DNA from: Candidatus Saccharimonadota bacterium
GTDB taxonomy: Bacteria; Patescibacteriota; Saccharimonadia; Saccharimonadales; JACOTW01
Direction of reading: 5' to 3'
Length of the DNA: 64,000 nucleotides
Assembly: GCA_016178135.1 (NCBI GenBank)
Contig: JACOTW010000003.1
Span: 472 to 64,471 of the forward strand
Positions 705 through 45,583 of this stretch are shown here, piece by piece. Position 1 is the stretch's first letter. Every line of letters begins with the position of its first letter. The position numbers were made by a program, and so were the translations under genes. The notes under the pieces were generated by a model that saw nothing but the letters and a program-made list of their open reading frames with translations, ran no database searches and was not told the origin of the DNA.

Positions 705-733
705 TTGGCAACAAAGTGCGAAAGTCCTATAAA
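705..733 (+). promoter_or_regulatory. Recurring promoter-like box TTGGCA-17nt-TATAAA (core AAAGTGCGAAAGTCCTATA) upstream of leuS
   Basis: Same AAAGTGCGAAAGT(C/T)CTATA(T/A)AA box recurs at ~10897, ~36270(-), ~36411, ~45558; sigma70-like spacing here. Confidence 0.5.
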
Positions 734-771
734 AATAAGTTTACCATGTGATAAGGTGTTATTTGTAAACT

Positions 772-3708
772 ATGAAACGTTATAATCCTAAAGAAATCGA
801 GCCAAAGTGGCAAAAAGTTTGGGAAGATCGAAAGATCTATCAAGCCTCTGAAGATCCAGCTAAGCCTAAACGCTATGTGTTGGAATATTTTCCGTACCCC
901 AGTGGTGCGGCCATGCACGTTGGGCATGTACGCAATTACACCATAGGTGACGTTGTGGCACGTTTTTACCGGATGCGTGGCTACAATGTTATGCATCCGA
1001 TGGGTTGGGATGCATTTGGACTGCCCGCCGAAAATTACGCCATTAAAAACAACATTAGCCCCCAGCAAGCGATAGCCGAGAACACTACCAGGTTTAAGCA
1101 ACAGCTTATGCGGATGGGTTTTAGCTATGATTGGTCGCGCGAAATCAATAGCTCTGACCCCAGTTATTATAAGTGGACGCAGTGGTTTTTCAAGCTGTTG
1201 TTCGATCGCGGGCTGGCGTACCAAAAAGAATCTCCCCAGTGGTGGTGCGAAACGGACAAAACGGTATTGGCAAACGAGCAGGTAGAATCCGGCAAGTGCT
1301 GGCGTTGCGGCAATGAAGTGACCAAAAAATCTCTCAAACAATGGTTTTTCAAGATTACAGATTACGCCGATAGATTAGTAGAAGATTTGGAAGATTTGGA
1401 TTGGTCAGATGCGATCAAATCCATGCAACACAATTGGGTTGGACGGAGCAAGGGTGCCGAGATCACTTTTGCAGTAGAAACTAGCAAGCAGAAAACAGCA
1501 AAGGAAGAAAAAATCATCGTCTTTACGACTCGGGCCGATACTTTGTTTGGGGCAACCTTCATGGTACTAGCCCCCGAGCACCCATTGGTGATGAAAATTG
1601 CGAAAGATTCGCAAAAATCAGAGGTGGAAAAGTACGTTAAACAGGCCCAGGTAAAGAGCGACATTGAACGGCAAGACACTGACCGCGAGAAAACAGGTGT
1701 ATTTACCGGTGCTTATGCAATTAACCCCGCCAACAACGAGAAGATTCCAATCTGGATAGCAGACTATGTATTGTACGGTTACGGTACAGGGGCCATCATG
1801 GCTGTGCCGGCTCATGATGAACGTGACTTTGAGTTCGCCGTGAAGTTTGATCTTCCGATCCGACAGGTATTTATGGAGTCGGGAGATGACCCGGTCAATC
1901 CACCGCAAGAAAAATTCAAGATGATCAAACGCAAAACAGTTGTTGTCCACCTGAGAGATCGTTCATCCGGCAAGTATGCGTTGCTTAATTGGCACGGGAC
2001 ATTAGAGGGTATCACAACGGCGATAATGGGAGGTATTGATGAGGGCGAGACGGCAGAAAATGCCGCGCTGAGGGAGATATCAGAAGAAGCAGGGATACAT
2101 AATGCCAAGATTGTAAAAACTGCCAGATGGATAAGCGCAGCCACCTACTGTGCATCGCACAAACAAGTAAATAGAAAATCAATTTCTACGGCTGTCTTAG
2201 CAGAAGTCGATAACTTGTCAAAACAGACCGAGGTAGCTGATTATGAAAAAAAGACCCATACCCTCATCTGGGTTACAGGTGATGCCGTAGAAGAATCGCT
2301 AATACCGATTAACCAAAAGCAAATCTGGAGTTATTTACAAAACGAGACCGCACTAACAGGTGAAGGTGAAGTCATTAACTCAGGAGAGTATGATGGTCTA
2401 TTGACATCAGATATGCGGGAAAAGATCGTGGCTGATTTGGCCAAGAAAAAAGTCGGCAAGGAAGTCGTCAATTACAAAATGCGCGATTGGCTCATTAGTC
2501 GGCAACGGTATTGGGGGGCACCAATTCCTATCATTCATTGCCCTAAAGATGGTGCCGTGGCGGTGCCAGACGATCAGTTACCGGTGGAACTGCCAGAGGT
2601 CAAGAGCTATCAGCCGACTGGCGAGGGGGCTAGCGTGCTGGCTGGCGTGGAGGAATGGGTCAATACAACTTGTCCTAAATGTGGCGAACCAGCCAAAAGA
2701 GAAACAGACACCATGGACGGTTTTGCTTGCTCCAGCTGGTATTTCCTGCGTTTTGCCGATCCGCATAATGATGTAGAGCCATTTAGCCCCCAAAAAGCCA
2801 AGTTTTGGTTGCCGGTAGATGATTACATCGGTGGAGCCGAACACGCCGTGATGCATTTGCTGTATGCTCGTATGTGGACCAAGGTTATGTATGATGCTGG
2901 ACTTGTAGAATTCAAAGAACCGTTTACGGCACTCCGCAACCAAGGTATGATTTTAGCTCCTGATGGTCAAAAGATGAGCAAGTCCAAGGGTAATACTATT
3001 GAGCCAGATGAGTTATTAGATCAAGGTTATGGTGCGGATTCGGTGCGTCTCATGGAACTTTTTATAGGCCCATGGGATCAATCAGCAGCCTGGAGCGTTA
3101 AAGGTTTGGGCGGTACGTATCGTTTTTTGAATCGTGTGTGGACTATCTGTCAAGAGCATATGACAGAAGTTACTAAGCTAGAAACTGAAGATCAAACTCA
3201 AAAAGTAGAAAATCAGGATATTAGCAAAGAATTGCGACGGGCTGTTCATCAGGCAATTAAGCGGGTTAGTGTAGACTTGCACGATATGGGCTTCAATACG
3301 TCTATAGCTACGCTTATGGAATTGACTAACGAGCTATATAAACTTAAAAGAAGCTATCCGGTAGGTTCGGCTGAATGGCACGATGCTTTAAGTATTTTGT
3401 TGCAATTGTTGGCACCGTTCGCACCCCACATTACCGAGGAATTATGGCAACAGTTAGGTGGACAAACATCGATACATACCAGCTCGTGGCCATTATGGGA
3501 CGATGCCCTGTTGGTGAATAACATCATGAAAATTATTGTGCAGATCAATGGTAAGTTACGGGCTGAAATCCATATTGCCACTGGTGCAAGTGAGATACAA
3601 GTTCTAGATACCGCTAAGGCTAACGAACGAGTAGCAAGCTATCTTCAGGATCACAAAATCAAGAAATCTATATATGTACCAAATAGACTAGTGAATTTTG
3701 TAGTCTAG
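772..3708 (+). CDS. leuS: Leucyl-tRNA synthetase, 978 aa, carrying an extra Nudix-fold insertion
   Basis: N-terminal HMGH class-I motif region (PYPSGAAMHVGHVRNYTIGDV), KMSKS (QKMSKSKGN), overall LeuRS architecture. Confidence 0.95.
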   Translation: MKRYNPKEIEPKWQKVWEDRKIYQASEDPAKPKRYVLEYFPYPSGAAMHVGHVRNYTIGDVVARFYRMRGYNVMHPMGWDAFGLPAENYAIKNNISPQQAIAENTTRFKQQLMRMGFSYDWSREINSSDPSYYKWTQWFFKLLFDRGLAYQKESPQWWCETDKTVLANEQVESGKCWRCGNEVTKKSLKQWFFKITDYADRLVEDLEDLDWSDAIKSMQHNWVGRSKGAEITFAVETSKQKTAKEEKIIVFTTRADTLFGATFMVLAPEHPLVMKIAKDSQKSEVEKYVKQAQVKSDIERQDTDREKTGVFTGAYAINPANNEKIPIWIADYVLYGYGTGAIMAVPAHDERDFEFAVKFDLPIRQVFMESGDDPVNPPQEKFKMIKRKTVVVHLRDRSSGKYALLNWHGTLEGITTAIMGGIDEGETAENAALREISEEAGIHNAKIVKTARWISAATYCASHKQVNRKSISTAVLAEVDNLSKQTEVADYEKKTHTLIWVTGDAVEESLIPINQKQIWSYLQNETALTGEGEVINSGEYDGLLTSDMREKIVADLAKKKVGKEVVNYKMRDWLISRQRYWGAPIPIIHCPKDGAVAVPDDQLPVELPEVKSYQPTGEGASVLAGVEEWVNTTCPKCGEPAKRETDTMDGFACSSWYFLRFADPHNDVEPFSPQKAKFWLPVDDYIGGAEHAVMHLLYARMWTKVMYDAGLVEFKEPFTALRNQGMILAPDGQKMSKSKGNTIEPDELLDQGYGADSVRLMELFIGPWDQSAAWSVKGLGGTYRFLNRVWTICQEHMTEVTKLETEDQTQKVENQDISKELRRAVHQAIKRVSVDLHDMGFNTSIATLMELTNELYKLKRSYPVGSAEWHDALSILLQLLAPFAPHITEELWQQLGGQTSIHTSSWPLWDDALLVNNIMKIIVQINGKLRAEIHIATGASEIQVLDTAKANERVASYLQDHKIKKSIYVPNRLVNFVV
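1867..2400 (+). other. Nudix hydrolase domain inserted in-frame inside leuS (after the CP1/editing region AHDERDFEFAVKFDLPIRQV)
   Basis: Perfect Nudix box GGIDEGETAENAALREISEEAGI (GX5EX7REUXEEXGU); segment ~130 aa longer than the equivalent E. coli LeuRS linker. Confidence 0.7.
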
Positions 3709-3796
3709 TTCAGTAATTTTGTCGTTCTGGAGTTCTGGTTGAGTTTTTGGTCAAAATCAGCTAAACTTATCCTAAGTATATAGGAGTATTGTTTTC

Positions 3797-3940
3797 ATGG
3801 GTAAACCAAAAAAACGCACTAGCCCCCGCCGAACAGGTATGCGCCGTAGTCATTTAGTACTGGAATTGGCTCGTGCGGTTAATGCCAAATCACCAGTAAA
3901 AGTTCGCACCACTAAACGCGAAACAGGCAAAAATATATAG
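3797..3940 (+). CDS. rpmF: 50S ribosomal protein L32 (47 aa), missed by ORF track
   Basis: MGKPKKRTSPRRTGMRRSHLVL: RRxxMRRSH motif typical of L32; AGGAG RBS at 3783-3787. Confidence 0.7.
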   Translation: MGKPKKRTSPRRTGMRRSHLVLELARAVNAKSPVKVRTTKRETGKNI

Positions 3941-3999
3941 TTTCTAAGTTTGAAAATACTATATACTGGTAGTAGTTACTAAAAGAAAGACTTAACAAC

Positions 4000-4473
4000 G
4001 TGGCATCTAATCGTCATCTTGGCCGTATAATTGCACTTCAGACGCTCTATGAACAGGATTTTCGCAGTGAATGCGAAGATAAGGGCTTTAATCTGGTCGC
4101 GGTGCTTGAACGCAATATTGGCAGGTATCGTGATATGCTTGACGGTGGTGATTTTACTGAAAGTCTGGTTAATGGTGTCAACGCGAAAGAAGTCGAATTA
4201 AATAAGTTGCTTAAGCCCATAGCCCCAGAAAGACCAATTGATCAGATTGCTCGCATGGACCTTATAGTATTGCACATTGGCGTTTACGAACTTCTATACG
4301 AACAAGGTACACCGCCAAAAGTGGTTATTAATGAGGCAGTTGAGCTGGCAAAATCTTTTGGCGGAGATAATTCTTCAAAATTTATCAACGGCGTATTAGG
4401 TACGCTGCTAAAACAAATAGAAGCCACTAAATCTACACCCAAATCAGTTAAAATTAAGAAAGACAATAAATGA
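4000..4473 (+). CDS. nusB: Transcription antitermination factor NusB
   Basis: IALQTLYE..., C-terminal [13 protein letters not shown] motif typical of NusB. Confidence 0.85.
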
Positions 4474-4486
4474 ACACTAATACTCT

Positions 4487-4646
4487 ACTGGACTTACGCA
4501 AAGCTCCCTCATCCCCAGACCAACTAACCTCGGCTACAAACAGTTTTTCCTCTCTCGATGTACCTTCAGGTACCTCTCCTTCAGATAAAACTGTTTTCGC
4601 TCGAGCTGATTCGCCCTGGGAACGGGGGATTTTGCATAAGTCCAGT
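4487..4646. repeat. MITE-like palindromic repeat, canonical copy (orientation B)
   Basis: ctggacttacgcaaagctccc..ccccagaccaac...ctctcgatgtaccttcaggtacctctccttcag...gctcgagctga..cctgggaacggg..ttttgcataagtccagt; terminal inverted repeats and central hairpin. Confidence 0.9.
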
Positions 4647-6206: not shown

Positions 6207-6365
6207 ACTCGACTTACGCAAAACTCCTCCATCCCCAGATCGAATTCTATCGGCTGCAAACAGTTTTTCTGTCCTCGATGTAGCCACAGCTACCTCTCCG
6301 CCAGATAAAACTGTTTTCGCTCGAGATAATTCACTCTGAGAACGGACGATTTTGCGTAAGTCGAG
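6207..6365. repeat. MITE-like palindromic repeat (orientation B, 'ctcgac/gatcgaattctatcggctgcaaacag' subfamily)
   Basis: actcgacttacgcaaaactcctccatccccagatcgaa...gatgtagccacagctacctc...ctgagaacggacgattttgcgtaagtcgagt. Confidence 0.9.
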
Positions 6366-7231: not shown

Positions 7232-7391
7232 ACTGGACCTGTCGCAAAATCGCCCGTTCCCAGGCTAAATCAGCTCGAGCTGGGAGTAGTTTGACCGAAG
7301 GAGAGGTAGCCATAGCTACATCGAGAGAAGACAGACCACTATCAGTCGATACCAGTTGGTCTGGGGATGGGGGAGCTTTGCATAAGTCCAG
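7232..7391. repeat. MITE-like palindromic repeat (orientation A), abutting the start of the 6373-7218 gene
   Basis: actggacctgtcgcaaaatcgcccgttcccaggc...ctgaaggagaggtagccatagctacatcgagagaag...ctggggatgggggagctttgcataagtccag. Confidence 0.9.
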
Positions 7392-8069: not shown

Positions 8070-8404
8070 TGACTGGACCTGTCGCAAAGCTCCCCCATCC
8101 CCAGACCAACTAATCTCGGCTGGTAGCGGTCTGTCTTCTCTCGATGTAGCAAAGAGCTAATTAACATCTATCTATCGGCTAAAATCTTCAGGTCTGCCAC
8201 TTTTATTCTGTTTTTTGTTTTCGGTTCGTACCGATAGGTACGACCAAAAGCCAAGAAAACAGAATAAAAATCATGCCAGCTGCTAAAGATTCGCTATCAA
8301 CGGATAGATGTTAATTAGCTCTAAGGCTACCTCTCCTTCAGGCAAACCATTCCCAAATCGAGCTGATTTAGCCTGGGAACGGGCGATTTTGCGACAGGTC
8401 CAGT
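8070..8404. repeat. MITE-like repeat (orientation B) interrupted by a nested ~170-bp palindromic insertion in its central loop
   Basis: Left part 8070-8150 and right part 8321-8404 together reconstitute a canonical copy (…gatgtagc | … | aaggctacctctccttcag…). Confidence 0.85.
8151..8320. repeat. Nested palindromic element with perfect 18-bp terminal inverted repeats (agctaattaacatctatc / gatagatgttaattagct) and imperfect long internal hairpin
   Basis: Terminal IRs exact; internal ttttattctgtttt...aaaacagaataaaa arms. Confidence 0.75.
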
Positions 8405-8447: not shown

Positions 8448-8479
8448 TTGACCAAAACCCTCGGGGGGGGGGGTAAACT
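8448..8479 (+). promoter_or_regulatory. Putative promoter with 11-G homopolymeric tract (8463-8473) between -35-like TTGACC and -10-like TAAACT: candidate slipped-strand phase-variation switch
   Basis: ttgacc aaaaccctc G11 t aaactc; spacer 20 nt as written, would be optimal (17) with G8; ~45 nt upstream of ATG 8519. Confidence 0.4.
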
Positions 8480-8518
8480 CACATATAAAGGATAAGCATA
8501 AAAAGGAATACATAGCTC

Positions 8519-10699: not shown

Positions 10700-10888
10700 A
10701 AGGGTCTCACCCTTAACATCACCCTTAACAGGGAAGAATTTTGGTGATTAGTGCCAAATCAGTTAGAAGACAGTCTTCTACAGGAGTCTTTTAGTGTCAT
10801 ATATCAGCTAACTGATACTTTATTGTTTCTGTCTAGGAAACATTATTCATGAGCTAACGAATACTATTTGGGAAAGATTTTATATGAG

Positions 10889-10921
10889 CTAAGTCGTGTT
10901 GCTGTGAAAAAGTGCGAAAGT
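10889..10921 (+). promoter_or_regulatory. Recurring AAAAGTGCGAAAGTCCTATATAAT promoter-like box upstream of KH-protein gene
   Basis: Identical core to boxes at 705-733, 36399-36433, 45548-45583. Confidence 0.5.
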
Positions 10922-10966
10922 CCTATATAATAGTTTCTACAGCCAGTAATTGAGGAGTATCAAATC

Positions 10967-11374
10967 ATGAATAGTACCATAGACCAACAGTTCATAGAAT
11001 TTATTGTTAAATCACTTGTCAACAAGCCAGATGCTGTAAGTGTTGAGCGTCGTATTGACGAGAAGGGTGTATTGCTTGAACTTACCGTTGATCCTGAAGA
11101 CCTTGGCCGAGTAATCGGAAAGCGCGGGGCGACTGCTCAAAGTCTGCGAACTCTGCTCCGAGCTCTTGGCACCAAGAATGACGCACGTTACAACCTAAAA
11201 ATTGTTGATAATGGTGAACAACCCGTAGCAACATTACCATCTGATCAAGGTACGCCATCCCCCGTGAGCAATAATGATGAAGACGTGGATGTTGCTGAAG
11301 ATGATACAGATCAAAACAGTGTTGTAAGTAAAACCCGAAAAGAACTTGATGATCTGGACGACTTAGATATATAA
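10967..11374 (+). CDS. KH-domain RNA-binding protein (YlqC/UPF0109-like) of the rpsP-trmD operon, with acidic C-terminal tail
   Basis: VERRIDEKGVLLELTVDPEDLGRVIGKRGATAQSLRTLL KH-fold GxxG motif; conserved position between rpsP and trmD. Confidence 0.75.
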   Translation: MNSTIDQQFIEFIVKSLVNKPDAVSVERRIDEKGVLLELTVDPEDLGRVIGKRGATAQSLRTLLRALGTKNDARYNLKIVDNGEQPVATLPSDQGTPSPVSNNDEDVDVAEDDTDQNSVVSKTRKELDDLDDLDI

Positions 11375-11375
11375 T

Positions 11376-11520
11376 AGGACTTACGCACTTTTTCACACCA
11401 CCCCAGACCAATCCTACAGGGCTGTAAACTGTTTATCTACTGTCAGTGTAGCTATGGTTGCCACTCCAGAAGCTCAACAGTTTTCGCTCCAAGTAGGATT
11501 ACTCTGGAATTGGCGACAAA
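11376..11520. repeat. Degenerate MITE copy (variant subfamily, cf. 573-700) ending in a diverged promoter-box-like terminus
   Basis: taggacttacgcactttttcacaccaccccagaccaa...gtgtagctatggttgccactcc...cagttttcgctccaag...ctggaattggcgacaaagt. Confidence 0.6.
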
Positions 11521-11623
11521 GTACAAATAGTTACTACATTATCAGCCGCAACCTTCGGTTAAAAAACAAAAATAGTATGGGCTCATGCGAGCGATTCGTA
11601 AGAATCGGAGCCTTATGTGACAC

Positions 11624-12950: not shown

Positions 12951-13111
12951 ACTGGACCTGTCGCAAAATCGCCCGTTCCCAGGGCAAATCAGCTCTAGTT
13001 TATAGTGGTTTGACTGAAGGAGAGGTAGCTTTAGCTACATCGAGAGAAGACAGACCGCTACCAGCCGAGATTAATTGGTCTGGGGATGGGGGAGCTTTGG
13101 GTAAGTCCAGT
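12951..13111. repeat. MITE-like palindromic repeat (orientation A)
   Basis: actggacctgtcgcaaaatcgcccgttcccagggcaaatcagctc...gtagctttagctac...ctggggatgggggagctttgggtaagtccagt. Confidence 0.9.
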
Positions 13112-13851: not shown

Positions 13852-13858
13852 TTTTGTT

Positions 13859-14015
13859 CGACTTACCCAAAGCTCCCCCATCCCCAGACCAACTAATCTC
13901 AAGCGGTAGCGGTCTGCCTTCTCTCGATGTAGCTATGGCTACCTCTCCTTCAGTCAAACCACTATCAGCTCGAGCTGATTTGCCTTGGGAGCGGATGATT
14001 TTGTGTTAGTCCAGT
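13859..14015. repeat. MITE-like palindromic repeat (orientation B; inverted relative to 12951-13111)
   Basis: cgacttacccaaagctcccccatccccagaccaactaatctc...gatgtagctatggctacctc...ccttgggagcggatgattttgtgttagtccagt. Confidence 0.9.
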
Positions 14016-15229: not shown

Positions 15230-15304
15230 GATGCTTGTGGTTGATATATGATAAGTGTACAGGTTTGGTCTATGTTTTGCCAGCTTCTGTATGTAATTGG
15301 CATA

Positions 15305-15453
15305 TAGTCCCCGCAAAACAAATTCGTGGGTTTTTGAAGCAATGATCTTTGAGCCAAAAACTGACTTTTCCGAGAGAGACATATCCTTAGATACGTTGAA
15401 CGAGGAAAGGCGGTTTTGGGCCAAAGAGGGTGATTCGAAAAGGCGATATAATA
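15305..15453 (+). repeat. Second repeat family (~150 bp), near-identical copy at 60059-60205; encodes a shared stop-free N-terminal leader MIFEPKTDFS(E/Q)RDISLDTLNEERRFWAKEGDSK
   Basis: tagtccccgcaaaacaaattcgtgggtttttgaagcaatgatctttgagccaaaaactgacttttcc.agagagacatatccttagatacgttgaacgaggaaaggcggttttgggccaaagagggtgattcgaaaag almost identical at both loci. Confidence 0.85.
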
Positions 15454-18816: not shown

Positions 18817-19129
18817 CCGGGGACATTTGTCTATAATTTAGGTTATTCATAATCCACAACGAACCAAATACTAGGACGATAACAACTAGCCCGGCGAATA
18901 AAAAGGCCATCAAATTCCAGCGTGGCTTGGATTCTTGACCAAGATTCAGGAAGAATATTAATTGTACGAATAATTGAATGATTGCTAGGAAGATTATAGC
19001 TGCCTTAATAACTCCATGGGTGCCAAAAGTGTGTGCCGATAGGACGTGGTGATTAACCAGCCAATAGGCCAATGAAGTTAGAACGATAGAAGCTATATAT
19101 CCGATTAAACTCGACTTACCCAAAATCAT
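18767..19129 (-). CDS. cyoD: Quinol oxidase subunit IV (CyoD/QoxD-like); proposed ATG lies inside a MITE copy, longer ORF to 19297 is MITE read-through
   Basis: ~110-aa 3-TM protein following cyoC; ATGATTTTGGGTAAGTCGAG start is the MITE terminus. Confidence 0.6.
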   Translation of the reverse strand: MILGKSSLIGYIASIVLTSLAYWLVNHHVLSAHTFGTHGVIKAAIIFLAIIQLFVQLIFFLNLGQESKPRWNLMAFLFAGLVVIVLVFGSLWIMNNLNYRQMSPDETEKFIQKEEGIYRH

Positions 19130-19263
19130 CCGCTCCCAGAGTGAATTATCTCGAGCGAAAACTGTTTTGTCTGAAGGAGAGGTAGCCCTAGTTGCATCGA
19201 CAGAAGAAAAACTGTTTGCAGCCGATAGAATTCGATCTGGGGATGAAGGAGTTTTGGGTAAGT
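19110..19263. repeat. MITE-like palindromic repeat (orientation A) overlapping the 5' end of cyoD
   Basis: actcgacttacccaaaatcatccgctcccagagtgaattatctcgagcgaaaactgtttt...gtagccctagttgc...gatctggggatgaaggagttttgggtaagtt. Confidence 0.85.
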
Positions 19264-19298
19264 TGATTTTGTAGGGCTTGGATGAACGGCTAGACATA

Positions 19299-25537: not shown

Positions 25538-27367
25538 ATGATGTTGAAGCAGCAGGAGAAAAAACGTGAAATTATTGATGTTGTCGCACGACTGTTGAGC
25601 TCGCGAAAATTTTTCTATATAACGATTGTTTTTTTTGTTTTTCAGGCAGCCTGGATAGCTTTGTCCGGACTTTATCCTATGGCTTTTGATGAGAATACTC
25701 ATCTTGGAATTATCAGGATATATGCTAATCATCTTTCACCTTTTTGGTCGAGACAGCCGGAAGGTACTGTTGTGTTAGGGGCTATTACTCGCGATCCCTC
25801 GTATTTTTACCATTACATTATGAGTTTTCCGTATAGGCTGATTGATGATGTTTTTCGCACGGAAATGTCCCAAGTGTTGGTACTTAGATTTATTAGTATA
25901 GTCTTTTTTGTTTGTGGCCTATTGCTTTATCGTCGGGTTCTCAAATACAGCAAAGCATCAGATCTAACTGTCAATGTCGTAATGGCGCTTTTGGTATTAA
26001 CGCCGGTTGTGCCATTTTTGGCTGCTCAAATCAATTACGACAATTTGATATTTGCACTTTGCGGACTGATTATCTTGCTAACATTGCAAATATCGGAAAG
26101 ACTTAACTGGACTTACGCGAAATCGCTCGTTCCTGGGGATAATCAGCTCGAGCGAGAACAGTCTCATCTGAAAGAGAAGCGCGTAAAGGTGCATCGAAAG
26201 AGAGAAAACTGTTTGCAGCCGAGGTTAGTCGGTCTGGGGATGAGGGAGCTTGCGACAGATCCAGTTGAACAGGGTCAAATTGACGCCAAACGAATCCTAT
26301 TGGTAATTATAGTTGGCTTGTTTGCCAGTATTGTGAAATATGCGTTTTTGCCAATTTTTATTGCAGTTTTAGTATGGTTAAGTTTTGATTTGAAGAAATA
26401 TGGTGGTGGTGCGATATTTAGACTGTTTGTGAATTCTTTTCGGAAGATTGTATGGCCAGTCAAAACCATACTTGTCATATTATTGATTATTGGAGCCGGA
26501 TTATTTACGGAACGCTACGGCATAAATACGCTACGCTACCATACGCCCACACCGGAATGCGACCAAGTTCTAAGTATTGAACAGTGCTTAGAATACGGAC
26601 CGTGGAGACGAAATTATCTCACCCATCAAGACAAAATCAACGGAAAACTTACTGTCAATAATGCTAGTGACCCTATTTCTTATACACTCAAAACATGGGC
26701 TGAAACAATGGTTTATAAATTGTTTTTTGTGAGTAATGGGCCGGCGAGTCAGTTTTGGATTGGTAATCCACTACCTGTACCGCTTGCTTTAGCCACGGGG
26801 TTTGGGATTGTTGGGGTTCTCTTGGCTTTGTGCTGGCAGAGAGAGTTACGCAAAAAATATAAACTGGGTCTTTTTGGTTTATTGACGGGTGTTTATGTAA
26901 TGGTTTTATGGGGTCAGAATTACATGGATTTTTTGCATATTGGTTATCCGTTTGCTATACAAGGACGATATTTGCTACCTATTTTGCCATTCGTATATCT
27001 TATATTAGTTCTAGCTATGAAGGCTCAACGACACACGAGTTTCGCACTTAGCCATTGCCCCAGATCACACCTGAACGGCTACAAACTTCCATCCCTCACT
27101 CAGCATAACTACAGTTATGCCTCCCTCGGATTAAAAGTTTTCGCTTGTTCAGTTGCAACCTGGCATCAACGGCTAAGTGCGAAACTCGTGCGACAGCTAA
27201 AAATAGGATTGGCGGTTACGATTTTGTTTATTTTGTTTATTCAGGGCGGTGGTCTGGTAACTTATATTGTTCGGAGTGACCAAACATGGTATTGGCCCAA
27301 TCAAACGATCGTGAATATCAATGATACCGCCCGCAAAATTCTTAAAACGTTTATTATTGGTTCTTGA
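25538..27367 (+). CDS. Large polytopic membrane protein, possible GT-C-fold glycosyltransferase (Pmt/ArnT-like); carries in-frame repeat insertions
   Basis: >12 predicted TM helices; first-loop AFDENTH (DE-type motif); adjacency to GT2 Ppm-like gene. Confidence 0.35.
   Translation: MMLKQQEKKREIIDVVARLLSSRKFFYITIVFFVFQAAWIALSGLYPMAFDENTHLGIIRIYANHLSPFWSRQPEGTVVLGAITRDPSYFYHYIMSFPYRLIDDVFRTEMSQVLVLRFISIVFFVCGLLLYRRVLKYSKASDLTVNVVMALLVLTPVVPFLAAQINYDNLIFALCGLIILLTLQISERLNWTYAKSLVPGDNQLEREQSHLKEKRVKVHRKRENCLQPRLVGLGMRELATDPVEQGQIDAKRILLVIIVGLFASIVKYAFLPIFIAVLVWLSFDLKKYGGGAIFRLFVNSFRKIVWPVKTILVILLIIGAGLFTERYGINTLRYHTPTPECDQVLSIEQCLEYGPWRRNYLTHQDKINGKLTVNNASDPISYTLKTWAETMVYKLFFVSNGPASQFWIGNPLPVPLALATGFGIVGVLLALCWQRELRKKYKLGLFGLLTGVYVMVLWGQNYMDFLHIGYPFAIQGRYLLPILPFVYLILVLAMKAQRHTSFALSHCPRSHLNGYKLPSLTQHNYSYASLGLKVFACSVATWHQRLSAKLVRQLKIGLAVTILFILFIQGGGLVTYIVRSDQTWYWPNQTIVNINDTARKILKTFIIGS
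26105..26265. repeat. MITE-like repeat (orientation A, diverged) in-frame inside membrane-protein ORF (read in a third frame)
   Basis: actggacttacgcgaaatcgctcgttcctggggataatcagctcgagcgagaacagtctc...ggtctggggatgagggagcttgcgacagatccagt. Confidence 0.85.
27034..27190. repeat. Variant palindromic element with 24-bp perfect terminal IR (cacgagtttcgcacttagccattg / caatggctaagtgcgaaactcgtg) and MITE-like core; in-frame in the same ORF
   Basis: IR read directly; core ggctacaaac...aaaagttttcgct resembles MITE interior; the right arm recurs inside the mosaic copy at 45301-45452. Confidence 0.7.
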
Positions 27368-28413: not shown

Positions 28414-28624
28414 TCATTCGACCTAAAAACTCCTCCATACCTAGACCGAATCCCATCGGTTATACCGGACTGACGAAAAACTCCCCCATCCCCAGACCAA
28501 CTAATCTCGGCTGATAGCGGTCTGTCTTCTCTCGATGTAGCTAAGGCTACCTCTCCTTCAGTCAAACCACTCCCAACTCGAGCTGATTTGCCCTGGGAAC
28601 GGGCGATTTTGCGACAGGTCCAGT
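28414..28624. repeat. Partial MITE fragment (28414-28469) followed by full MITE-like copy (orientation B, 28470-28624)
   Basis: …aaaaactcccccatccccagaccaactaatctcggctgatagcggtctg…gatgtagctaaggctacctc…cctgggaacgggcgattttgcgacaggtccagt. Confidence 0.9.
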
Positions 28625-28686: not shown

Positions 28687-29865
28687 CTAAAACAAGTCTA
28701 AGCCGTTTATTTCTGGGGGTAAAAAACCTTCGGGGTGTTTGAAGCCGGCTTTCCATTTAGTACCTTTGCCATAGCCCAGATCTTTCATGAGTTGGGTAGG
28801 TGCGTTGCGGAGATGAATTGGTACAGGAAGGTTGGGGTAATTTTTGGCGGTCTCTATGGCTTTATACATGGCGTTAGCTACGGCTCGTGACTTTTCACAT
28901 TTAGCAAGTACGGTAGCGCAGTGAAACAGATTGAATTGACATTCCGGCAAGCCAGTGCGTTCGACTGCCAAAAAAGTTGAAACAGCCAGATTCAAGGCTG
29001 CCGGTGCGGCAATACCGATGTCTTCGCTGGCGAAAATTACCATGCGTCTAGCGATAAATTTTGGATCTTCACCAGCTTGTATCATTCGTGCCATGTAGTA
29101 AAGGGCGGCATTAGGGTCATTGCCACGCAATGATTTTATAAAGGCACTGATTATGTTGTAGTGATTTTCTCCTTGCTTGTCATAGTCTGGAGCGCGCTTC
29201 TGAGCGGCCATAACTACTACTTCTGGTGTAATTGTGCCGTTGGTTAAACTTAATGCTAGCTCCAGATTGCCTAGGGCAATGCGGGCATCGCCACCCGATA
29301 GCTCGGCTATTAGATCAATACTGCGAATGGGTAAGCGTTTGGCAGTGATTTTTTCTGTCTTGGTGGCTTGTTTGATGATTTTAATAATTTCGGTTTTATC
29401 CAGAGGGTTTAATACTAGTACGCGCGAGCGACTAAGTAATGGTGCGATAACCTCGAAGCTGGGATTTTCAGTTGTTGCACCGATTAGTATTATGGTACCA
29501 GTTTCTACATGGGGTAAAAAGGCATCTTGTTGGGTTTTGTTGAAGCGATGAATCTCATCTACGAATAAAATAGTGCGTATACCCAGCCGCTGATTTTGTT
29601 GAGCACGATCAATAACCTTTGTTATGTCAGCTTTGCCGGAGGTTACGGCACTAAGTTCGGTGAATTCGACATCCAGCTCATTGGCCAGTATGCGAGCCAG
29701 GGTGGTTTTGCCAGAGCCAGGCGGTCCCCAGAGAATCAGGCTTGCGGGCTTATTTTTGGTAATAATTTCATGAACTATAGCCCCAGGAGCCAATAAGTGC
29801 TCCTGGCCGACCATCTGCTTTAATTTATCCGGCCGCATTCGTTCGGCCAACGGTCTTCTGTCCAC
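28687..29865 (-). CDS. rarA: Replication-associated recombination protein A (AAA+ ATPase RarA/MgsA)
   Basis: Walker A GPPGSGKTT, Walker B ILFVDEIHRFNK, sensor/arginine-finger region, C-terminal MgsA helical domain. Confidence 0.9.
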   Translation of the reverse strand: MDRRPLAERMRPDKLKQMVGQEHLLAPGAIVHEIITKNKPASLILWGPPGSGKTTLARILANELDVEFTELSAVTSGKADITKVIDRAQQNQRLGIRTILFVDEIHRFNKTQQDAFLPHVETGTIILIGATTENPSFEVIAPLLSRSRVLVLNPLDKTEIIKIIKQATKTEKITAKRLPIRSIDLIAELSGGDARIALGNLELALSLTNGTITPEVVVMAAQKRAPDYDKQGENHYNIISAFIKSLRGNDPNAALYYMARMIQAGEDPKFIARRMVIFASEDIGIAAPAALNLAVSTFLAVERTGLPECQFNLFHCATVLAKCEKSRAVANAMYKAIETAKNYPNLPVPIHLRNAPTQLMKDLGYGKGTKWKAGFKHPEGFLPPEINGLDLF

Positions 29866-29908: not shown

Positions 29909-30121
29909 CTACTCACCACCTTTTTGGACATAACCCTTCACAAACTCTTCAGCATTTTCTTCTAGTACTTCATCAATCTCATCCAGTAAACCGTCAAGTT
30001 CTTCTTTAATACCGGCACCCTTTGTGGCTGTTTCACCAACGCTATGCACTTGGTCTTCATTGGTTTCCTCTTCTCTACGGCGCTCTGGTGTTGGTACTCG
30101 TTTTTGTATACGTTCTGCCAT
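29909..30121 (-). CDS. pup: Prokaryotic ubiquitin-like protein Pup homolog (70 aa) ending in GGE
   Basis: C-terminal LLDEIDEVLEENAEEFVKGYVQKGGE aligns almost residue-for-residue with mycobacterial Pup (LLDEIDDVLEENAEDFVRAYVQKGGQ); strong RBS GGGAGG. Confidence 0.8.
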   Translation of the reverse strand: MAERIQKRVPTPERRREEETNEDQVHSVGETATKGAGIKEELDGLLDEIDEVLEENAEEFVKGYVQKGGE

Positions 30122-31345: not shown

Positions 31346-31457
31346 ACTGGATTTGTCGCAAAATCGCTTGTTCCCAGAGCGAAAGTTCTATTTTATCTGA
31401 AGGTACATCGACCTGTTTGTCAGTTTGGGGATGATGGAATTTTGCGACAGGTCCAGT
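31346..31457. repeat. Shortened (~112 bp) MITE derivative (orientation A)
   Basis: actggatttgtcgcaaaatcgcttgttcccagagcgaaagttc...gtttggggatgatggaattttgcgacaggtccagt. Confidence 0.8.
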
Positions 31458-33343: not shown

Positions 33344-33933
33344 TGAAAAACTGGACTATTGAAAAAGCATATCCGTACGTATTGCTCGTCACTGGGTTTT
33401 TGGGGCTAGTTGCTTCATTCATCCTGACCTATGACAAAATCATGATCCTGAAAGACCCTAATTTCATCCCTGACTGCAATATTAATCCAATTTTCAGCTG
33501 TGGTTCGGTCATGAGCAAGCCACAAGCTGAAGTATTCGGCATGCCCAACACGCTATTTGGGATAATCGCATTTAGCGTAATTGTAACCATAGCGGTCGCA
33601 ATGTTGTTCGGCGCAAAGTTTAAGCCGCTATTTTGGAAACTGCTTTTCGCTGGAACTTTGGCGGGGCTTGCTGGCGTTATCTATCTATTTTTCCAGGGGA
33701 TATACCGTATAAATGCCATTTGTCCTTATTGCGCTATGACCTGGGTCGTGGTCGTGGCGTTAGTCGTTTATACGTTTGTCTGGAATATAAAGCAAAAATA
33801 CATGACAGTGCCAAAAACTTTTGAGCAGTCGGCCAAGTTTGTTGTCCAAAACCACATCGGTGTCCTTGTGGTTATATATCTAATAATTCTTGGTTTAGTA
33901 TTGCAGCATTTTTGGTGGTATTTTGGTAGCTAG
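33343..33933 (+). CDS. Vitamin K epoxide reductase (VKOR) family membrane protein
   Basis: Loop cysteine pair CNINPIFSC and active-site CPYC in TM helix; ~5 TM helices. Confidence 0.7.
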   Translation: MKNWTIEKAYPYVLLVTGFLGLVASFILTYDKIMILKDPNFIPDCNINPIFSCGSVMSKPQAEVFGMPNTLFGIIAFSVIVTIAVAMLFGAKFKPLFWKLLFAGTLAGLAGVIYLFFQGIYRINAICPYCAMTWVVVVALVVYTFVWNIKQKYMTVPKTFEQSAKFVVQNHIGVLVVIYLIILGLVLQHFWWYFGS

Positions 33934-35270
33934 CCTTTGGTGCGCAATAGGTCAATTGCCAGGGCGGCGGTCCAGGAGAAGTTTTGAACGCCATCAGCAG
34001 TACCGGTTAGAGGATCAAAGTATTCGCTAAAACCCGATTTGGCCACTAGCTCAATGGTAGATTCTTGTAAGGCGGCAGCGTGATCTTTGAACCCCATACG
34101 GTTTAAGCCATCAATAATAAGCCAGTTGGTATTAATCCATGTCGGTCCCTGCCAGTAGGCCCCAGAATTAAACCAGGTAGAATTTATGGGTACACTTGGC
34201 ACCGGAAAGGCGGGTCCAAACAGATGTTGATTTTCTAACATTTTAACAAGGGTGTTGGCGCGTTCCTGGCTGATAGTACCTGCATACAAAGGTATTAACG
34301 CAGCTATACTGGGCTCTTTTAGCATTGTGTGCGTAACAAAATTTCGTGAATAATACTGGCTACTGTACGGATCCCATAGCTGTTCCAGGGCGGCTTCTGT
34401 TTTTTGCATTGAATCTAATAATTCATGAGGTAAATCAAATCGTATAGTTTTAGCCATATGCACTAAATGCTGGTTGGCCCTAATGAAAATACAGTTGAAA
34501 GTTAGATCTTCTATAGCGAATAAAGAGTGAGTTAGGACACGGCTAATATCGTAACGTTTACGTCTAAGTCGTCGTTGTGTGCTGTATAGGGCTAGTGCGT
34601 CTATTGTGTCCAGTCGTTGTTCGGCTGGTACATAATGAGTATCGCGCCGGAACATAGTTATCAAGAATTCGAGATGTAATTTCTTTATCAGAGTAATCCA
34701 GCCCGCCATTTGATGGTCATGCAGTTCGCTCATCCATGGTGGTGTATTATCAAGACCGGTTTCCCATGGGTGGATTTGTAATGCCAGACCTTCATTATGC
34801 GGATCGCGCTCTTTATACAGCCACTGGTGATGCTTGATCAGTGCTGGTAACACAGTCCTATACCAAGTACGTCGTTCTGGTAGGCTTAGTTTTTTACCGA
34901 TTTGTACAGCTGCTTCTGCTAAAACTGGTGGCTGGGTGATACCACTAGTATTGACGTCATCTGGTGAATATGGACTTAGCCAGCCACGCCAGATATTTTT
35001 GTCTCGAGCATGAACTTGATCGCTCAAAATATTATGCGGGATCATTCCGTTGCTCCATTGGCCACGTAACAGGCTTAATAACTCGGTTTTTGCTCGTTCA
35101 ACATCTAAATGACGTAATCCTATAGCTACAAAACAACTATCCCATAACCATTGATGAGGATAAAGGCCTTTGGCAGGTACAGTATAAGAACCCTGATCGT
35201 TCATTTCCAGTACTGTTTTAGCGGCTTCCAAGATAGTAGTTGATTTGGTATCCGACGATTGGTTTTTCAT
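33930..35270 (-). CDS. (alpha/alpha)6-barrel glycoside hydrolase (GH63/mannosyl- or glucosylglycerate-hydrolase-like, debranching-type)
   Basis: YPHQWLWDSCF…, IHPWETGLDNTPPW, C-terminal GFSEYFDPLTG…WTAALAIDLL motifs typical of six-hairpin glycosidases. Confidence 0.5.
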   Translation of the reverse strand: MKNQSSDTKSTTILEAAKTVLEMNDQGSYTVPAKGLYPHQWLWDSCFVAIGLRHLDVERAKTELLSLLRGQWSNGMIPHNILSDQVHARDKNIWRGWLSPYSPDDVNTSGITQPPVLAEAAVQIGKKLSLPERRTWYRTVLPALIKHHQWLYKERDPHNEGLALQIHPWETGLDNTPPWMSELHDHQMAGWITLIKKLHLEFLITMFRRDTHYVPAEQRLDTIDALALYSTQRRLRRKRYDISRVLTHSLFAIEDLTFNCIFIRANQHLVHMAKTIRFDLPHELLDSMQKTEAALEQLWDPYSSQYYSRNFVTHTMLKEPSIAALIPLYAGTISQERANTLVKMLENQHLFGPAFPVPSVPINSTWFNSGAYWQGPTWINTNWLIIDGLNRMGFKDHAAALQESTIELVAKSGFSEYFDPLTGTADGVQNFSWTAALAIDLLRTKG

Positions 35271-35796: not shown

Positions 35797-36258
35797 TTAG
35801 GATAATTTAAGGGGTATCCCTTCCTTCTTAGCGATTGCTTGCGCCCAATTGACAATCGCTTGAAGCTTGTTTTGCATTTCGCGGAGTTCTATTTCGGTAA
35901 TATTCGGCAGTCTTTTTTCAATTTCTAGCAATCGGTCTAAAATTTCTTTGATATCATTGGTTTGGGCTTTTTGTTCGTTAGCTATATGGTCTACGGTTAT
36001 CTTCAGTTTGGTATACTGCCTCTCCAATCCGGCAATACGATTTACTAAACTGCCAACATTACCCTCTATATTTCCCATTCTAGTTTCCAACCCATCCATC
36101 CGACCATCCAACCCATCCATCCGATCTTCAAGTTTGCCCATGCGATTATCTAAACGGATAAAACCATCACTGGTCATCTGCATACTTTCTTGCAGAAGCT
36201 CCAGAATGTCATCGTTTGTTACAGGTTTTTGAGGCATAGCAACTATATTATAAGTCAT
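35797..36258 (-). CDS. Hypothetical coiled-coil protein with RMDGLxGRMDGLETRMGNIEG repeats; start at MTYNIV
   Basis: ORF with promoter-box copy (36266-36290, minus strand) ~8 nt upstream of ATG. Confidence 0.4.
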   Translation of the reverse strand: MTYNIVAMPQKPVTNDDILELLQESMQMTSDGFIRLDNRMGKLEDRMDGLDGRMDGLETRMGNIEGNVGSLVNRIAGLERQYTKLKITVDHIANEQKAQTNDIKEILDRLLEIEKRLPNITEIELREMQNKLQAIVNWAQAIAKKEGIPLKLS

Positions 36259-36295
36259 TCGGTTGCTATATAGAACTTTCGCACTTTTACGTCGC

Positions 36296-36376
36296 AACAG
36301 ACCACAGCTGACTGACTGCAAACTGTCTGTATTCTCTCGATGTACCTACGGGTACCCTTCAAGAATCCAAACAGTT
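36296..36376. repeat. Degenerate central fragment of the MITE family
   Basis: gctgcaaactgtctgtattctctcgatgtacctacgggtacccttcaagaatccaaacagttttcgt. Confidence 0.6.
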
Positions 36377-36398
36377 TTCGTACCAATCATCTGTACTC

Positions 36399-36433
36399 TG
36401 TTATCAATGCAAAAGTGCGAAAGTCCTATATAA
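36399..36433 (+). promoter_or_regulatory. Recurring CTGTTATCaATGcAAAAGTGCGAAAGTCCTATATAAT promoter-like box upstream of pheS (very short leader)
   Basis: Same box as 45548-45583 over ~35 nt; TATAAT ends 11 nt before pheS ATG. Confidence 0.5.
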
Positions 36434-36443
36434 TACATACCAA

Positions 36444-37481
36444 ATGAGTTATCAGAATAATAAAATTACGGAAGTTGCCGAGGCACTAAAAAAACGCTTT
36501 GAGGAGCTTCAGATAAAATCTGACATCTTAAAAGCTATTGAGCTCAAAGCTCTGTACGCAGAAATACCTAGTCTGGCCGCAGAAGAACGGGCGATGTTTG
36601 GTAAAGAGATCAATGACCTAAAAGCAGAGCTAGAGGACATGGTGGCAGCTCATAAAAATCAAGCAGAAGAGCTACCGTCAATTGATGTCACGGCACCATT
36701 TGACACTAATCTATCCCCAGAGAAGCGGCCAGCATTACTTGGTCCAGAGCTGGGTAGCAAACACCCCTTGATGACTGAAATGGAACTGGTTTTGGACATC
36801 TTCTATCGCATGGGCTTCAATGCTATAGAATCACGCCAGTTAGATGATGATTTTCACATGTTTGGTAGTCTAAATTTCCCAGAAGGTCATCCAGCACGCG
36901 ATGACTACGATACATTTATGACAACCGAAGGCCTGATTGCCCCCGCTCATACAAGCACTATGCAGAACCGTGTGCTCAAAAAATACATTGGAAATCTAGA
37001 AAAGGACGGCCCGATTGCTGTTATTATTCCTGGTCGAGTATTTAGGAACGAAGATCTTGATGCTCGCCACGAGCATACCTTTTATCAGCTCGAAGGTGTT
37101 TATGTAGGCAAAGGTATCCATGCCGGGAACCTAATCGCGACTCTCAAAACATTTCTGCAAGAGTATTACCAGAAAGAACTAGATGTAAAAACCCAACCGT
37201 TTTACTTTCCATTTACAGAGCCAAGTTTTGAATTTGCGCTTAGTTGTCCATTTTGTGACAAAAAAGGCTGCCATGTATGTAGCTACAGCGGCTGGATTGA
37301 GCTACTCGGCTGCGGCATGATTCACCCGAACGTGCTGAAGATGGCCGGCATCGACCCTAACACCTACACCGGATTTGCCTGGGGTTGTGGTATCGACCGA
37401 TTGGTGATGATGAAATATGACATCGAAGATATCCGGCACTTTGAGTCCGGCAAGTTAGAATTCCTGAGGCAATTCTCATGA
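36444..37481 (+). CDS. pheS: Phenylalanyl-tRNA synthetase alpha subunit
   Basis: Class II motifs (FRNEDLDARHEHTFYQLEG, FTEPSFEF, GFAWGCGIDRLVM). Confidence 0.95.
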   Translation: MSYQNNKITEVAEALKKRFEELQIKSDILKAIELKALYAEIPSLAAEERAMFGKEINDLKAELEDMVAAHKNQAEELPSIDVTAPFDTNLSPEKRPALLGPELGSKHPLMTEMELVLDIFYRMGFNAIESRQLDDDFHMFGSLNFPEGHPARDDYDTFMTTEGLIAPAHTSTMQNRVLKKYIGNLEKDGPIAVIIPGRVFRNEDLDARHEHTFYQLEGVYVGKGIHAGNLIATLKTFLQEYYQKELDVKTQPFYFPFTEPSFEFALSCPFCDKKGCHVCSYSGWIELLGCGMIHPNVLKMAGIDPNTYTGFAWGCGIDRLVMMKYDIEDIRHFESGKLEFLRQFS

Positions 37482-42912: not shown

Positions 42913-42946
42913 CGCAAATTATCGATAGCGTGGTAATCTTTTACTG

Positions 42947-44722: not shown

Positions 44723-44756
44723 ATCCAGTACACTGGGACTATCTAGAAAGGGTTAG

Positions 44757-45293
44757 ATGGCAAAAACAAAACCATATGAACGTATTTTTGCGTTGACCGC
44801 TGCCTTAGTTTTTTTGACTACCACAGTCGCGATTAGTTTAGTGGTGGTGTGGCAGGCAAGACAAGATAACAAAGACAGCCAAACGGCTATTTCACAACAA
44901 GGGTCATTAAAGGAGGCTAAATTGGAAGGCACTAAATTAGCAGGCTTCACGCCGATAGACAAGGTAGAACAATTACAAATTTCTGATTTGCAGGTAGGCA
45001 CTGGAGCAGAAGTCAAAGAGGGTGCCACGGTAACGGCGCACTACACCGGAGCGTTAGCCAAAAACGGTACTATTTTTCAAAGCTCGCACGATGGCGCTAA
45101 TCAGCCAGTAGAATTTCCTTTGAATGGCGTAATTGCTGGCTGGACAAAGGGAGTGCCCGGCATGAAAGTAGGTGGCACGCGACGCTTAATTATTCCGGCC
45201 AGTTTAGCTTACGGAGAAAGTTCACCATCGGCAAATATCCCCCCAAACTCCGACCTAGTTTTTGATATAGAATTAACTGCGATCAAAAATTAA
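44757..45293 (+). CDS. FKBP-type peptidyl-prolyl cis-trans isomerase with N-terminal membrane anchor
   Basis: VTAHYTGALAKNGTIFQSSHD…GWTKGVPGMKVGGTRRLIIPASLAYGE FKBP motifs. Confidence 0.85.
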   Translation: MAKTKPYERIFALTAALVFLTTTVAISLVVVWQARQDNKDSQTAISQQGSLKEAKLEGTKLAGFTPIDKVEQLQISDLQVGTGAEVKEGATVTAHYTGALAKNGTIFQSSHDGANQPVEFPLNGVIAGWTKGVPGMKVGGTRRLIIPASLAYGESSPSANIPPNSDLVFDIELTAIKN

Positions 45294-45300
45294 AATTACG

Positions 45301-45452
45301 GAGATTCTATACTCGACTTACCCAAAATTGTCCGTTTCCAGAGTGAATTATCTCGAGCGAAAACTGTTTTCGCTCATCCAGCTGGAACCAAGGCATCAAT
45401 GGCTAAGTGCGAAACTCGTGTCCGGGAACGGGCGATTTTGCGTAAGTCCAGT
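45301..45452. repeat. Mosaic MITE copy: A-type left arm, B-type right arm, core replaced by the 27034-type IR segment
   Basis: actcgacttacccaaaattgtccgtttccagagtgaattatctcgagcgaaaactgttttcgctc…caatggctaagtgcgaaactcgtg…ccgggaacgggcgattttgcgtaagtccagt. Confidence 0.8.
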
Positions 45453-45547
45453 AAATACAAAAACACAACATGTAGCGTATTGCATAAGTATCAAAACGCT
45501 ATACAATAAGTCTTGCAAGCTTTTTTATAGGGCTTACGCATTACCCT

Positions 45548-45583
45548 GTTATCTATGTAAAAGTGCGAAAGTTCTATATAAAA
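45548..45583 (+). promoter_or_regulatory. Recurring CTGTTATCtATGtAAAAGTGCGAAAGTTCTATATAAA promoter-like box upstream of glutaredoxin-like gene
   Basis: Near-identical to 36399-36433 box. Confidence 0.5.

Follow-up and report, generated by a model that had tools for sequence, protein, structure and literature searches.

A recurrent box upstream of genes in a Saccharibacteria genome is the end of a miniature transposable element

The window analyzed here, a 64-kb stretch of DNA from Candidatus Saccharimonadota bacterium (positions 472 to 64,471 of contig JACOTW010000003.1), contains a short sequence, hereafter the box, with the consensus AAAAGTGCGAAAGTyCTATAwAA. With at most one mismatch, it is found at 712-734 (+), 10908-10930 (+), 36266-36288 (-), 36411-36433 (+) and 45559-45581 (+), a sixth and weaker copy being present at 11370-11392 (-), and the number of matches expected by chance is 0 (100 dinucleotide-preserving shuffles). 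The five copies are all oriented toward a gene start, namely those of leuS (772-3708, +; Pfam, with an inserted NUDIX domain), khpA, encoding a KH-domain protein (10967-11374, +; Pfam PF13083), a gene for a coiled-coil protein (35797-36258, -; start ATG at 36258 or 36237), pheS (36444-37481, +) and a glutaredoxin gene (45628-45876, +; Pfam). Between the end of the TATA or TAAA of the box and the ATG, leuS has a gap of 38 nt, khpA one of 37 nt, pheS one of 11 nt and the glutaredoxin gene one of 47 nt; for the coiled-coil gene, it is 8 or 29 nt from the TATA end, depending on the choice between the two candidate ATGs, of which the one at 36237 has its own TATAAT 9 nt upstream (36252-36247). Upstream of leuS lies a gene for a WhiB-like protein (14-571; Pfam WhiB match). 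A first-pass annotation of this DNA had noticed the five-fold recurrence of the box, which is borne out at slightly shifted coordinates, as is its presence at the promoters of housekeeping genes, and had taken the box for a diverged terminus of a MITE (miniature inverted-repeat transposable element) acting as a portable promoter.

Anatomy and origin of the box-type element

The box is the 17-18-nt, outward-facing terminal inverted repeat (TAGGACTTTCGCACTTT, AAAGTGCGAAAGTCCTA) of a 158-bp MITE, followed by a 4-bp target-site duplication. It always forms the outer end of an element of about 158 bp with an inverted partner at the far end, or of a truncated derivative of such an element; indeed, in more than 70 elements, the inverted repeat at one end is matched by its complement at the opposite end. 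These box-type elements are small (157-159 bp) and carry no transposase gene. The 4-mers lying just outside TAGGAC...GTCCTA are identical on both sides in 12 of the 21 well-defined elements, the duplicated sequence being TATA in nine, TTTA in two and TAAA in one (569-572 and 730-733 of the window), and the larger data set adds matching pairs of TAAG, TACA, TAGT and CCTA. Since the 4-bp duplication matches on both sides, the TATA seen in the box has been copied from the host target and lies outside the element.

In the window, copy 1 (573-729, +, 157 bp) has a T-variant of the repeat on its left (TAGGACTTACGCACTTT, 573-589) and the box on its right (713-729), and is flanked by identical TAAA duplications at 569-572 and 730-733. 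Copy 3 (36271-36428, +, 158 bp), which sits between the divergent coiled-coil gene and pheS, has the box at both ends (36271-36287 on the minus strand, and 36412-36428) and adopts the fold of a long, imperfect hairpin (-55.5 kcal/mol, z = -8.3). Its left TATA duplication occupies 36267-36270, and the right one forms with a host AT the hexamer TATAAT (36429-36434, +), 9 nt before the pheS ATG. Upstream of khpA, a truncated element recognized by nhmmer and alignment (10887-10925, +) retains an arm of about 22 nt and the right repeat (10909-10925), followed by a TATAAT made of the TATA target and a host AT (10926-10931, +) 35 nt before the ATG, and then by a GAGGAG Shine-Dalgarno sequence. Upstream of the glutaredoxin gene, an internally deleted mini element (45527-45576, +) combines a degenerate left repeat (45527-45541) with a right repeat that is the box (45560-45576); here the TATA target and the next AA form TATAAA (45577-45582, +), 45 nt before the ATG. 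A further element (11375-11523, +) abuts the khpA stop codon with a T-variant left repeat (11375-11391) and has a degenerate right end. The T-variant (GCGTAAGTCCTA), in which a T replaces the central A, thus occurs in inverted orientation at 573-589 and 11375-11391 and in degenerate form at 45527-45541, and these inverted copies point at gene 3' ends or at an upstream intergenic stretch.

Two of these elements sit on the stop codons of the genes that precede them, the WhiB-like gene (569-571) and khpA (11372-11374), and both TAA stops lie within the 4-bp target duplications (TAAA and ATAA).

Altogether, the window holds five box-type copies and about 17 other MITE copies. The likeness of the box core to the terminus of the abundant main family, pointed out in the first-pass annotation, is real, and the bodies are homologous as well, since a profile built from box-type elements matches the interiors of main-family copies (nhmmer). 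The box is therefore indeed a MITE terminus; it is not a diverged remnant, being the intact end of a sister subfamily, and the supposedly degenerate bodies at 573-729 and 36271-36428 turn out to be complete elements of 157-158 bp with both inverted repeats and matching target duplications.

The wider distribution of the box was explored by an exact 19-mer search of one genome per species and of metagenome contigs, which favours young or conserved ends; loci from other genomes are designated by L-numbers. Locus L011, from a metagenome-assembled genome (MAG) of Andersenbacteria, harbours a complete element of 1,147 bp (3180-4326), whose two inverted repeats are the box and which is flanked by a duplicated CCTA. 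Its 336-aa open reading frame (ORF) matches the NCBIfam model of IS701-family transposases (NF049921, E = 1.2e-97, 327 bits for a cut-off of 250), as well as Pfam DDE_Tnp_1 and DDE_5, and homologous transposases adjoin the box in L144 (72% identity), L070 (34%) and L081. No transposase homolog was detected by tblastn in the window or in the Saccharibacteria loci (8-kb pieces). The same repeat (TAGGACTT[TA]CGCA...GTGCGAAAGTCCTA) is also present at both ends of 70-130-bp MITEs whose interiors are unrelated and which come from other Patescibacteria, from a Berkelbacteria MAG, from Adhaeribacter (Bacteroidota) and from two Methanocaldococcus genomes; such short MITEs, with TATA or TAAG duplications, are found in L019 (about 4000-4101), L035 (about 2810-2902) and L023 (about 2240-2362), and also in L003, L032 and L034. 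Recognition by the transposase is the simplest explanation for the conservation of GTGCGAAAGTCC, since the same repeat bounds an IS701-family element, and the 158-bp box-type MITE probably derives from an insertion sequence of this family.

The Methanocaldococcus ends are located 42-62 nt before ATGs, beside TATATA-rich sequence that could correspond to archaeal TATA boxes. A mimicry by the box of the archaeal B recognition element (BRE) and TATA box was considered, CGAAAGT fitting the BRE consensus, and was abandoned when the Methanocaldococcus matches were recognized as short MITEs bounded by these same repeats. Likewise, a structured RNA resembling RNase P (GAAAGUCC) was discarded after Rfam scans, which returned only a tRNA-Gln in the window and nothing in eight box loci from outside Saccharibacteria.

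Box ends and the -10 hexamers of host promoters

The position of the box relative to genes was assessed on 138 unique exact box ends from Saccharibacteria-like loci, de-duplicated, some metagenome ends of which may come from close relatives, with heuristic gene calls (longest ORFs). The ATG of a long ORF follows the duplication by 6-15 nt at 31 ends, a gene start is faced from farther away at 40, a gene 3' end or terminator is faced at 36, 28 could not be classified and three are too near a contig end. Hence, 51% of the ends point at gene starts and 26% at gene 3' ends or terminators, and in some elements both intact ends point toward 3' ends (L009, L096 and L142), so that, contrary to the earlier claim, the box does not precede a gene in every case. 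The link with gene starts nevertheless exceeds what random placement predicts: 22.5% of the box ends are start-proximal (6-15 nt) for 7.1% of random non-coding TATA sites run through the same classifier (p ~8e-9). By comparison, a start-proximal -10 hexamer is found at one of the 32 main-family ends of the window (7233). The genes downstream of the box vary by species (prfB, pyk, def, pyrB, a Mur ligase gene, a tRNA gene in L012 and others), which indicates that the insertions are independent.

That the box would be the operator of a transcription factor co-regulating housekeeping genes, its likeness to a MITE end being secondary, seems to us highly improbable. Several translation-related genes of the window do have a conserved 17-nt sequence immediately before their -10, but this sequence is not palindromic, it comes as two inverted copies 158 bp apart, flanked by target duplications, or else in a truncated derivative, it bounds an IS701 transposase gene, and it precedes genes that are unrelated across species, when it does not face a 3' end as a quarter of its copies do.

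Many genes of the window and of Saccharibacteria loci in general have a TATAAT- or TATACT-type hexamer 6-12 nt before their ATG, for instance, in the window, those at 28687-29865 (-), 33930-35270 (-), 32267, 51406 and 16241. Across 148 such cases, TGn (n, any base) precedes the hexamer in about 28% and there is no -35 consensus, the sole upstream signal being tg.TATAAT. This layout suggests that leaderless or near-leaderless mRNAs, together with extended -10 promoters, are widespread in Saccharibacteria.

The junctions between box and gene were examined against this background. At start-proximal ends, the duplication and the two bases that flank it read TATAAT in 13 cases, TATACT in seven, TATAGT in three, TACACT in three, and similar sequences elsewhere. 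A T stands at position 6 of this hexamer in 30 of the 31 start-proximal ends and in six of the 36 ends that face gene 3' ends; being present almost exclusively where a gene start follows, this T belongs to the host flank. Among the window copies, those of pheS and khpA have a -10 with an A at position 2 and a T at position 6 (TATAAT), in contrast to the TATAAA of leuS and of the glutaredoxin gene and to the TATAGC at the coiled-coil junction.

Relatives in which the element is absent, compared here for pheS, khpA and leuS, already possess the hexamer. Upstream of pheS, the element is present in the window, L153, L069 and L092, and the site is empty in L154, L155 and L156, whose PheS proteins are 84, 81 and 79% identical to that of the window and whose intergenic regions measure about 30-110 nt. 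This coexistence of filled and empty sites is evidence of mobility. These empty sites read TGtTATAAT-10-ATG, GGtTATAAT-7-ATG and TGtTATAAT-7-ATG, respectively, and the pheS site of the window becomes TGcTATAAT upon removal of the element in silico. Similarly, khpA without an element is preceded in L135 by TGcTATAAT and in L107 by TGgTACAAT; the ATG comes about 35-40 nt later, after a Shine-Dalgarno sequence, a layout like that of the window. In turn, leuS has TGtTATACT in L107 and TGtTAAACT in L135, both 9 nt before the ATG. Furthermore, when the element and one duplication are removed in silico from start-proximal sites, TGn appears in front of the hexamer in eight of 24 cases (33%), a frequency to be compared with 42 of 148 (28%) for native leaderless-type promoters, three of 37 for ends facing gene 3' ends and a background of 6.6% for TG. 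The occurrence of TGn on the far flank at its native frequency argues that the elements split extended -10 promoters between TGn and TATA. From these comparisons, the TATAAT upstream of pheS (36429-36434) is best read as the ancestral -10 of a leaderless-type promoter. The statement that the element provides the TATAAT or TATAAA -10 is thus contradicted: the TATA is the target duplication, the T at position 6 comes from the host, and relatives devoid of the element already have TATAAT.

We consider it likely that an IS701-derived MITE has inserted into the first four bases of host -10 hexamers, which the duplication preserves, the promoter signal remaining mostly that of the host. The element would target a TATA-like tetramer, mostly TATA and also TAAA or TTTA, and, intergenic space being scarce in the compact genomes of Saccharibacteria, such a target would make it land frequently in -10 hexamers. 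The promoters hit would typically be of the TGnTATAAT type, often 6-12 nt before the ATG, as befits leaderless or near-leaderless mRNAs. By restoring the whole hexamer on the gene side, the 4-bp duplication would let the host -10 and the start point survive, while the TG motif and the DNA further upstream would be displaced by 162 bp and replaced by the inverted repeat. The restored hexamer would presumably still drive transcription by itself, and the inverted repeat would be tolerated rather than needed.

Transcription could also begin on the far side of the element, at the left copy of the split promoter or through read-through from the preceding gene, in which case the element would be a hairpin in the 5' leader acting post-transcriptionally on processing or stability. 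The left junction does retain TGnTATATA (TGnTATA and the TA of the repeat) directed into the element, the hairpin of copy 3 is very stable, no terminator-like site separates the whiB-like gene from leuS, and Correia elements offer a precedent of hairpins handled by RNase III (PMC2649163). However, TATATA lacks the T at position 6, a perfect hexamer is kept on the gene side at 30 of the 31 start-proximal ends, and pheS, which has no Shine-Dalgarno sequence and whose ATG comes 9 nt after TATAAT, would be poorly translated from a structured leader of 170 nt. We regard this scenario as very unlikely.

A further alternative, closer to the initial claim, is that the MITE end works as a portable or hybrid promoter like those of Correia elements, the repeat and its arm adding a substitute for the -35 or a favourable spacer and the insertions being kept for this reason. 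The excess of start-proximal ends, the presence of an element upstream of pheS in at least three lineages and in both orientations, the GTGAAA-16-TATAAT of khpA, the TTGGCA-17-TATAAA of leuS, where no native -10 is left, and the tRNA gene that follows one box would fit such a promoter, as would the precedents of the Correia 'Black promoter' (PMC2649163) and of the sigma-70-like promoters of other MITEs (PMC10969869). The repeat itself brings little that resembles a promoter: the best match to a -35 averages 2.9 of 6 positions at filled sites, 2.8 at native promoters (n = 141) and 2.5 in shuffled sequences, and the inverted repeat places CTA where TGn stood. In reconstructed empty sites, the mean best -35 match is 2.7 of 6, no better than controls, a test devoid of signal because native promoters have no -35 consensus. 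Among the five window boxes, only that of khpA (GTGAAA-16-TATAAT) passes a two-hexamer sigma-70 scan, no more than in shuffles, and the boxes display neither a -35 at 16-18 nt nor a TGn-extended -10 as a common feature. Moreover, the hexamer predates the insertion according to the empty sites and to the TGn frequencies, 26% of the intact ends face gene 3' ends or terminators, in some elements at both ends, and the same repeat is present in an archaeon, where the transcription machinery differs. There is hence no sign in these sequences that the inverted repeat adds a promoter function, and its being tolerated is the simplest reading; a promoter reduced to the hexamer is plausible since native promoters lack a -35 consensus. 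A portable promoter appears unlikely as a general explanation.

The leuS copy deserves separate consideration. Its candidate promoter (705-733, +) consists of TTGGCA (705-710), located in the arm of the element, a 17-nt spacer and TATAAA (728-733), whose first TA ends the repeat and whose TAAA is the duplication. The native-type hexamer, TAAACT in the window, abuts the leuS ATG and so cannot serve as -10; leuS is the only gene for which element and duplication together may supply a whole promoter. The TTGGCA noted in the first-pass annotation thus has the proper spacing, but TATAAA lacks the T at position 6 and is rejected by the two-hexamer scan. Read-through from the whiB-like gene is an alternative for leuS, as no terminator-like site lies between the two genes. 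The proposal of repeat-borne promoters for housekeeping genes is consequently retained in part: a MITE end does stand at these promoters, the -10 belongs to the host and the repeat contains no -35, leuS being a possible exception. LeuS itself is a protein of 978 aa whose NUDIX domain (aa 392-506; Pfam, E = 1.8e-8) follows the editing domain.

Several observations weigh against the insertion of the MITE into host -10 hexamers as a complete account. Start-proximal box ends are about three times as frequent as random TATA sites in the same position and the main family reaches one end in 32, so that target choice alone may not explain the excess and selection for a useful repeat is possible. Upstream of pheS, the element occupies the site in at least three lineages whose PheS proteins are about 72% identical, with nearly perfect repeats and diverged flanks, a pattern that points to a hot spot or to selection for its retention. 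In both L069/L108 and L092/L105/L120, it sits at the very same TATA, and its orientation in L092 is opposite to that in the window and L069; the recurrence may come from a favoured target hit more than once, from inversion in place or from retention by selection. A second gene, encoding a 217-aa protein, carries a box-type element in two species. Within single elements (21 in all), the better preserved repeat is the one that faces a gene start in 10 cases and the one that faces a 3' end in four, with seven ties, a weak tendency that points to function and is not significant (p = 0.18). Finally, the TATAAA of leuS and of the glutaredoxin gene do without the T at position 6. As for recent mobility, none is apparent from the comparison with L153, a 98.8% identical relative in which every MITE is in the same place.

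Main-family copies and other features of the window

The main family, represented by the 158-bp copy at 4488-4645 (+) with termini CTGGACTTACGCAAA and CTGGACCTGTCGCAAA, has 4-bp duplications of the TNNA pattern. Further copies are located at 6208-6365, 7233-7391, 8073-8403, 12952-13110, 13857-14014, 19110-19267, 23384-23541, 23594-23751, 24663-24820, 25317-25474, 26107-26264, 28465-28623, 31347-31456, 45312-45451 and 60942-61101, and a copy of a third subfamily (27040-27190, +; termini ...GGCTAAGTGCGAAACTCGTG) lies inside the ORF at 25538-27367. Three long ORFs contain main-family copies in frame, which encode a flippase-like/LPG-synthase-TM protein (24293-25486, -), a GT1 glycosyltransferase (22895-24346, +) and a DUF2142-like membrane protein (25538-27367, +). 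As an intragenic copy of 158 bp and its 4-bp duplication add up to 162 bp, i.e. 54 codons, the reading frame is kept. In the flippase-like protein (396-397 aa), two inserts, each about 50 aa long, coincide exactly with the positions of the MITEs and are absent from seven homologs of 285-297 aa, and a search of the protein database with the insert peptides returned only eight short matches, mostly from this genome, which argues for a main family restricted to this lineage. For annotation, this means that about 100 residues of the flippase-like protein are encoded by two MITE copies.

MITE ends also mislead the prediction of start codons, since the public call of the coiled-coil gene (L153 9333-9815, equivalent to about 35797-36279 of the window; 160 aa) starts at a GTG inside the inverted repeat. 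The PheS homologs of 351 aa, compared with 345 aa, may be extended in a similar way.

Other repeats are a 140-nt direct repeat, 99% identical, whose copies (15303-15442 and 60055-60194) are 44.7 kb apart and overlap weak matches to the MITE profile (15351-15423 and 60103-60175), one of them in an oxidoreductase ORF, and a 97-nt repeat of 86% identity (59827-59923 and 60816-60912). The gene starting at 7505 is preceded by a canonical TTGACA-17-TAGAAT promoter, and the intergenic region upstream of the gene starting at 8519 contains a run of about 11 G (ccctcgggggggggggtaaac, about 8465-8480) which could be a slippage-prone tract or an assembly artefact. A 70-aa ORF (29909-30121, -) matches the family of the prokaryotic ubiquitin-like protein Pup (E = 1e-20) and adjoins a gene for an MgsA/RarA-like AAA protein.

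Relation to known systems and significance

Insertion sequences such as IS1, IS2, IS257, ISAba1 and similar elements carry an outward -35 in their inverted repeat, which forms a hybrid promoter with a -10 of the host. The box-type end resembles them in that the end of a transposon directly upstream of a host -10 takes the place of the upstream promoter half; it differs in that a classical insertion sequence brings a good -35, whereas the box end has none and displaces the native TG.

The closest analogy is with the Correia repeat enclosed elements (CREE) of Neisseria, which are MITEs of about 105-157 bp that have inverted repeats, duplicate an AT-type target and possess a terminus whose last bases are TATA (PMC2649163, PMC10969869). 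Like box-type elements, they often sit just 5' of genes, in either orientation, with a junction -10 completed by the host flank and with RNA hairpins; the preferential position just 5' of genes is indeed seen for box-type ends, 51% of the 138 pointing at gene starts. In the 'Black promoter', the element contains the -35 and part of the -10, and the flank completes the latter (PMC2649163), and inversion in place has been reported for Correia elements (PMC10969869). Unlike the box-type MITE, a CREE has its own -35 and part of the -10, duplicates TA only and has no known transposase; in the box-type MITE, the duplication is of 4 bp, no conserved -35 is seen, with the leuS copy as a possible exception, a matching IS701-family element exists and the promoter role is a prediction. 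Because its duplication spans 4 bp, the whole hexamer pre-exists in the host, unlike in the Correia case.

The relationship with the IS701 family rests on the identical repeat that bounds the 1,147-bp element, whose transposase scores above the NCBIfam cut-off, and on a short target duplication of fixed length. In addition, the inverted repeat of ISDge5 (CTCAGGAGTTGCACCT) shares the AGGA...GCAC pattern (PMC8533066), the difference being that ISDge5 duplicates 5 bp and box-type elements 4 bp. Neither IS701 nor Patescibacteria is mentioned in a review of prokaryotic MITEs published in 2024, and a literature search on leaderless promoters in Saccharibacteria gave nothing on the promoters of this group among the papers listed.

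Regarding the intragenic copies, the Rickettsia palindromic elements, about 150 bp long, interrupt conserved protein genes without loss of frame and add a peptide segment to them (PMC10969869). The main-family MITEs found in frame within genes of the window resemble them, but they belong to another element family in another host phylum, and here element and duplication together span exactly 54 codons (162 bp), as seen in three genes of a single genome.

The explanation of a 'promoter box' of Saccharibacteria as the end of a transposon guards against naming such a sequence a promoter or regulon motif. It also shows one way in which mobile DNA survives in tiny, gene-dense genomes, by inserting where the target duplication repairs the damage. 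Natural promoter 'swaps' are thereby available by the dozen, in which TGn and the DNA upstream of it have been replaced by one fixed sequence. Going further, we tentatively raise the possibility, in our opinion rather doubtful, of a MITE that seeks -10 boxes: it would home to the TATA of the -10, that of leaderless genes included, rebuild it through the duplication and thus spread in ultra-compact CPR genomes without silencing genes, while stripping them of the TG and of upstream control, and at some loci, such as pheS, it may have become a fixed and selected part of the promoter. The Methanocaldococcus relatives hint that the same may take place at archaeal TATA boxes.

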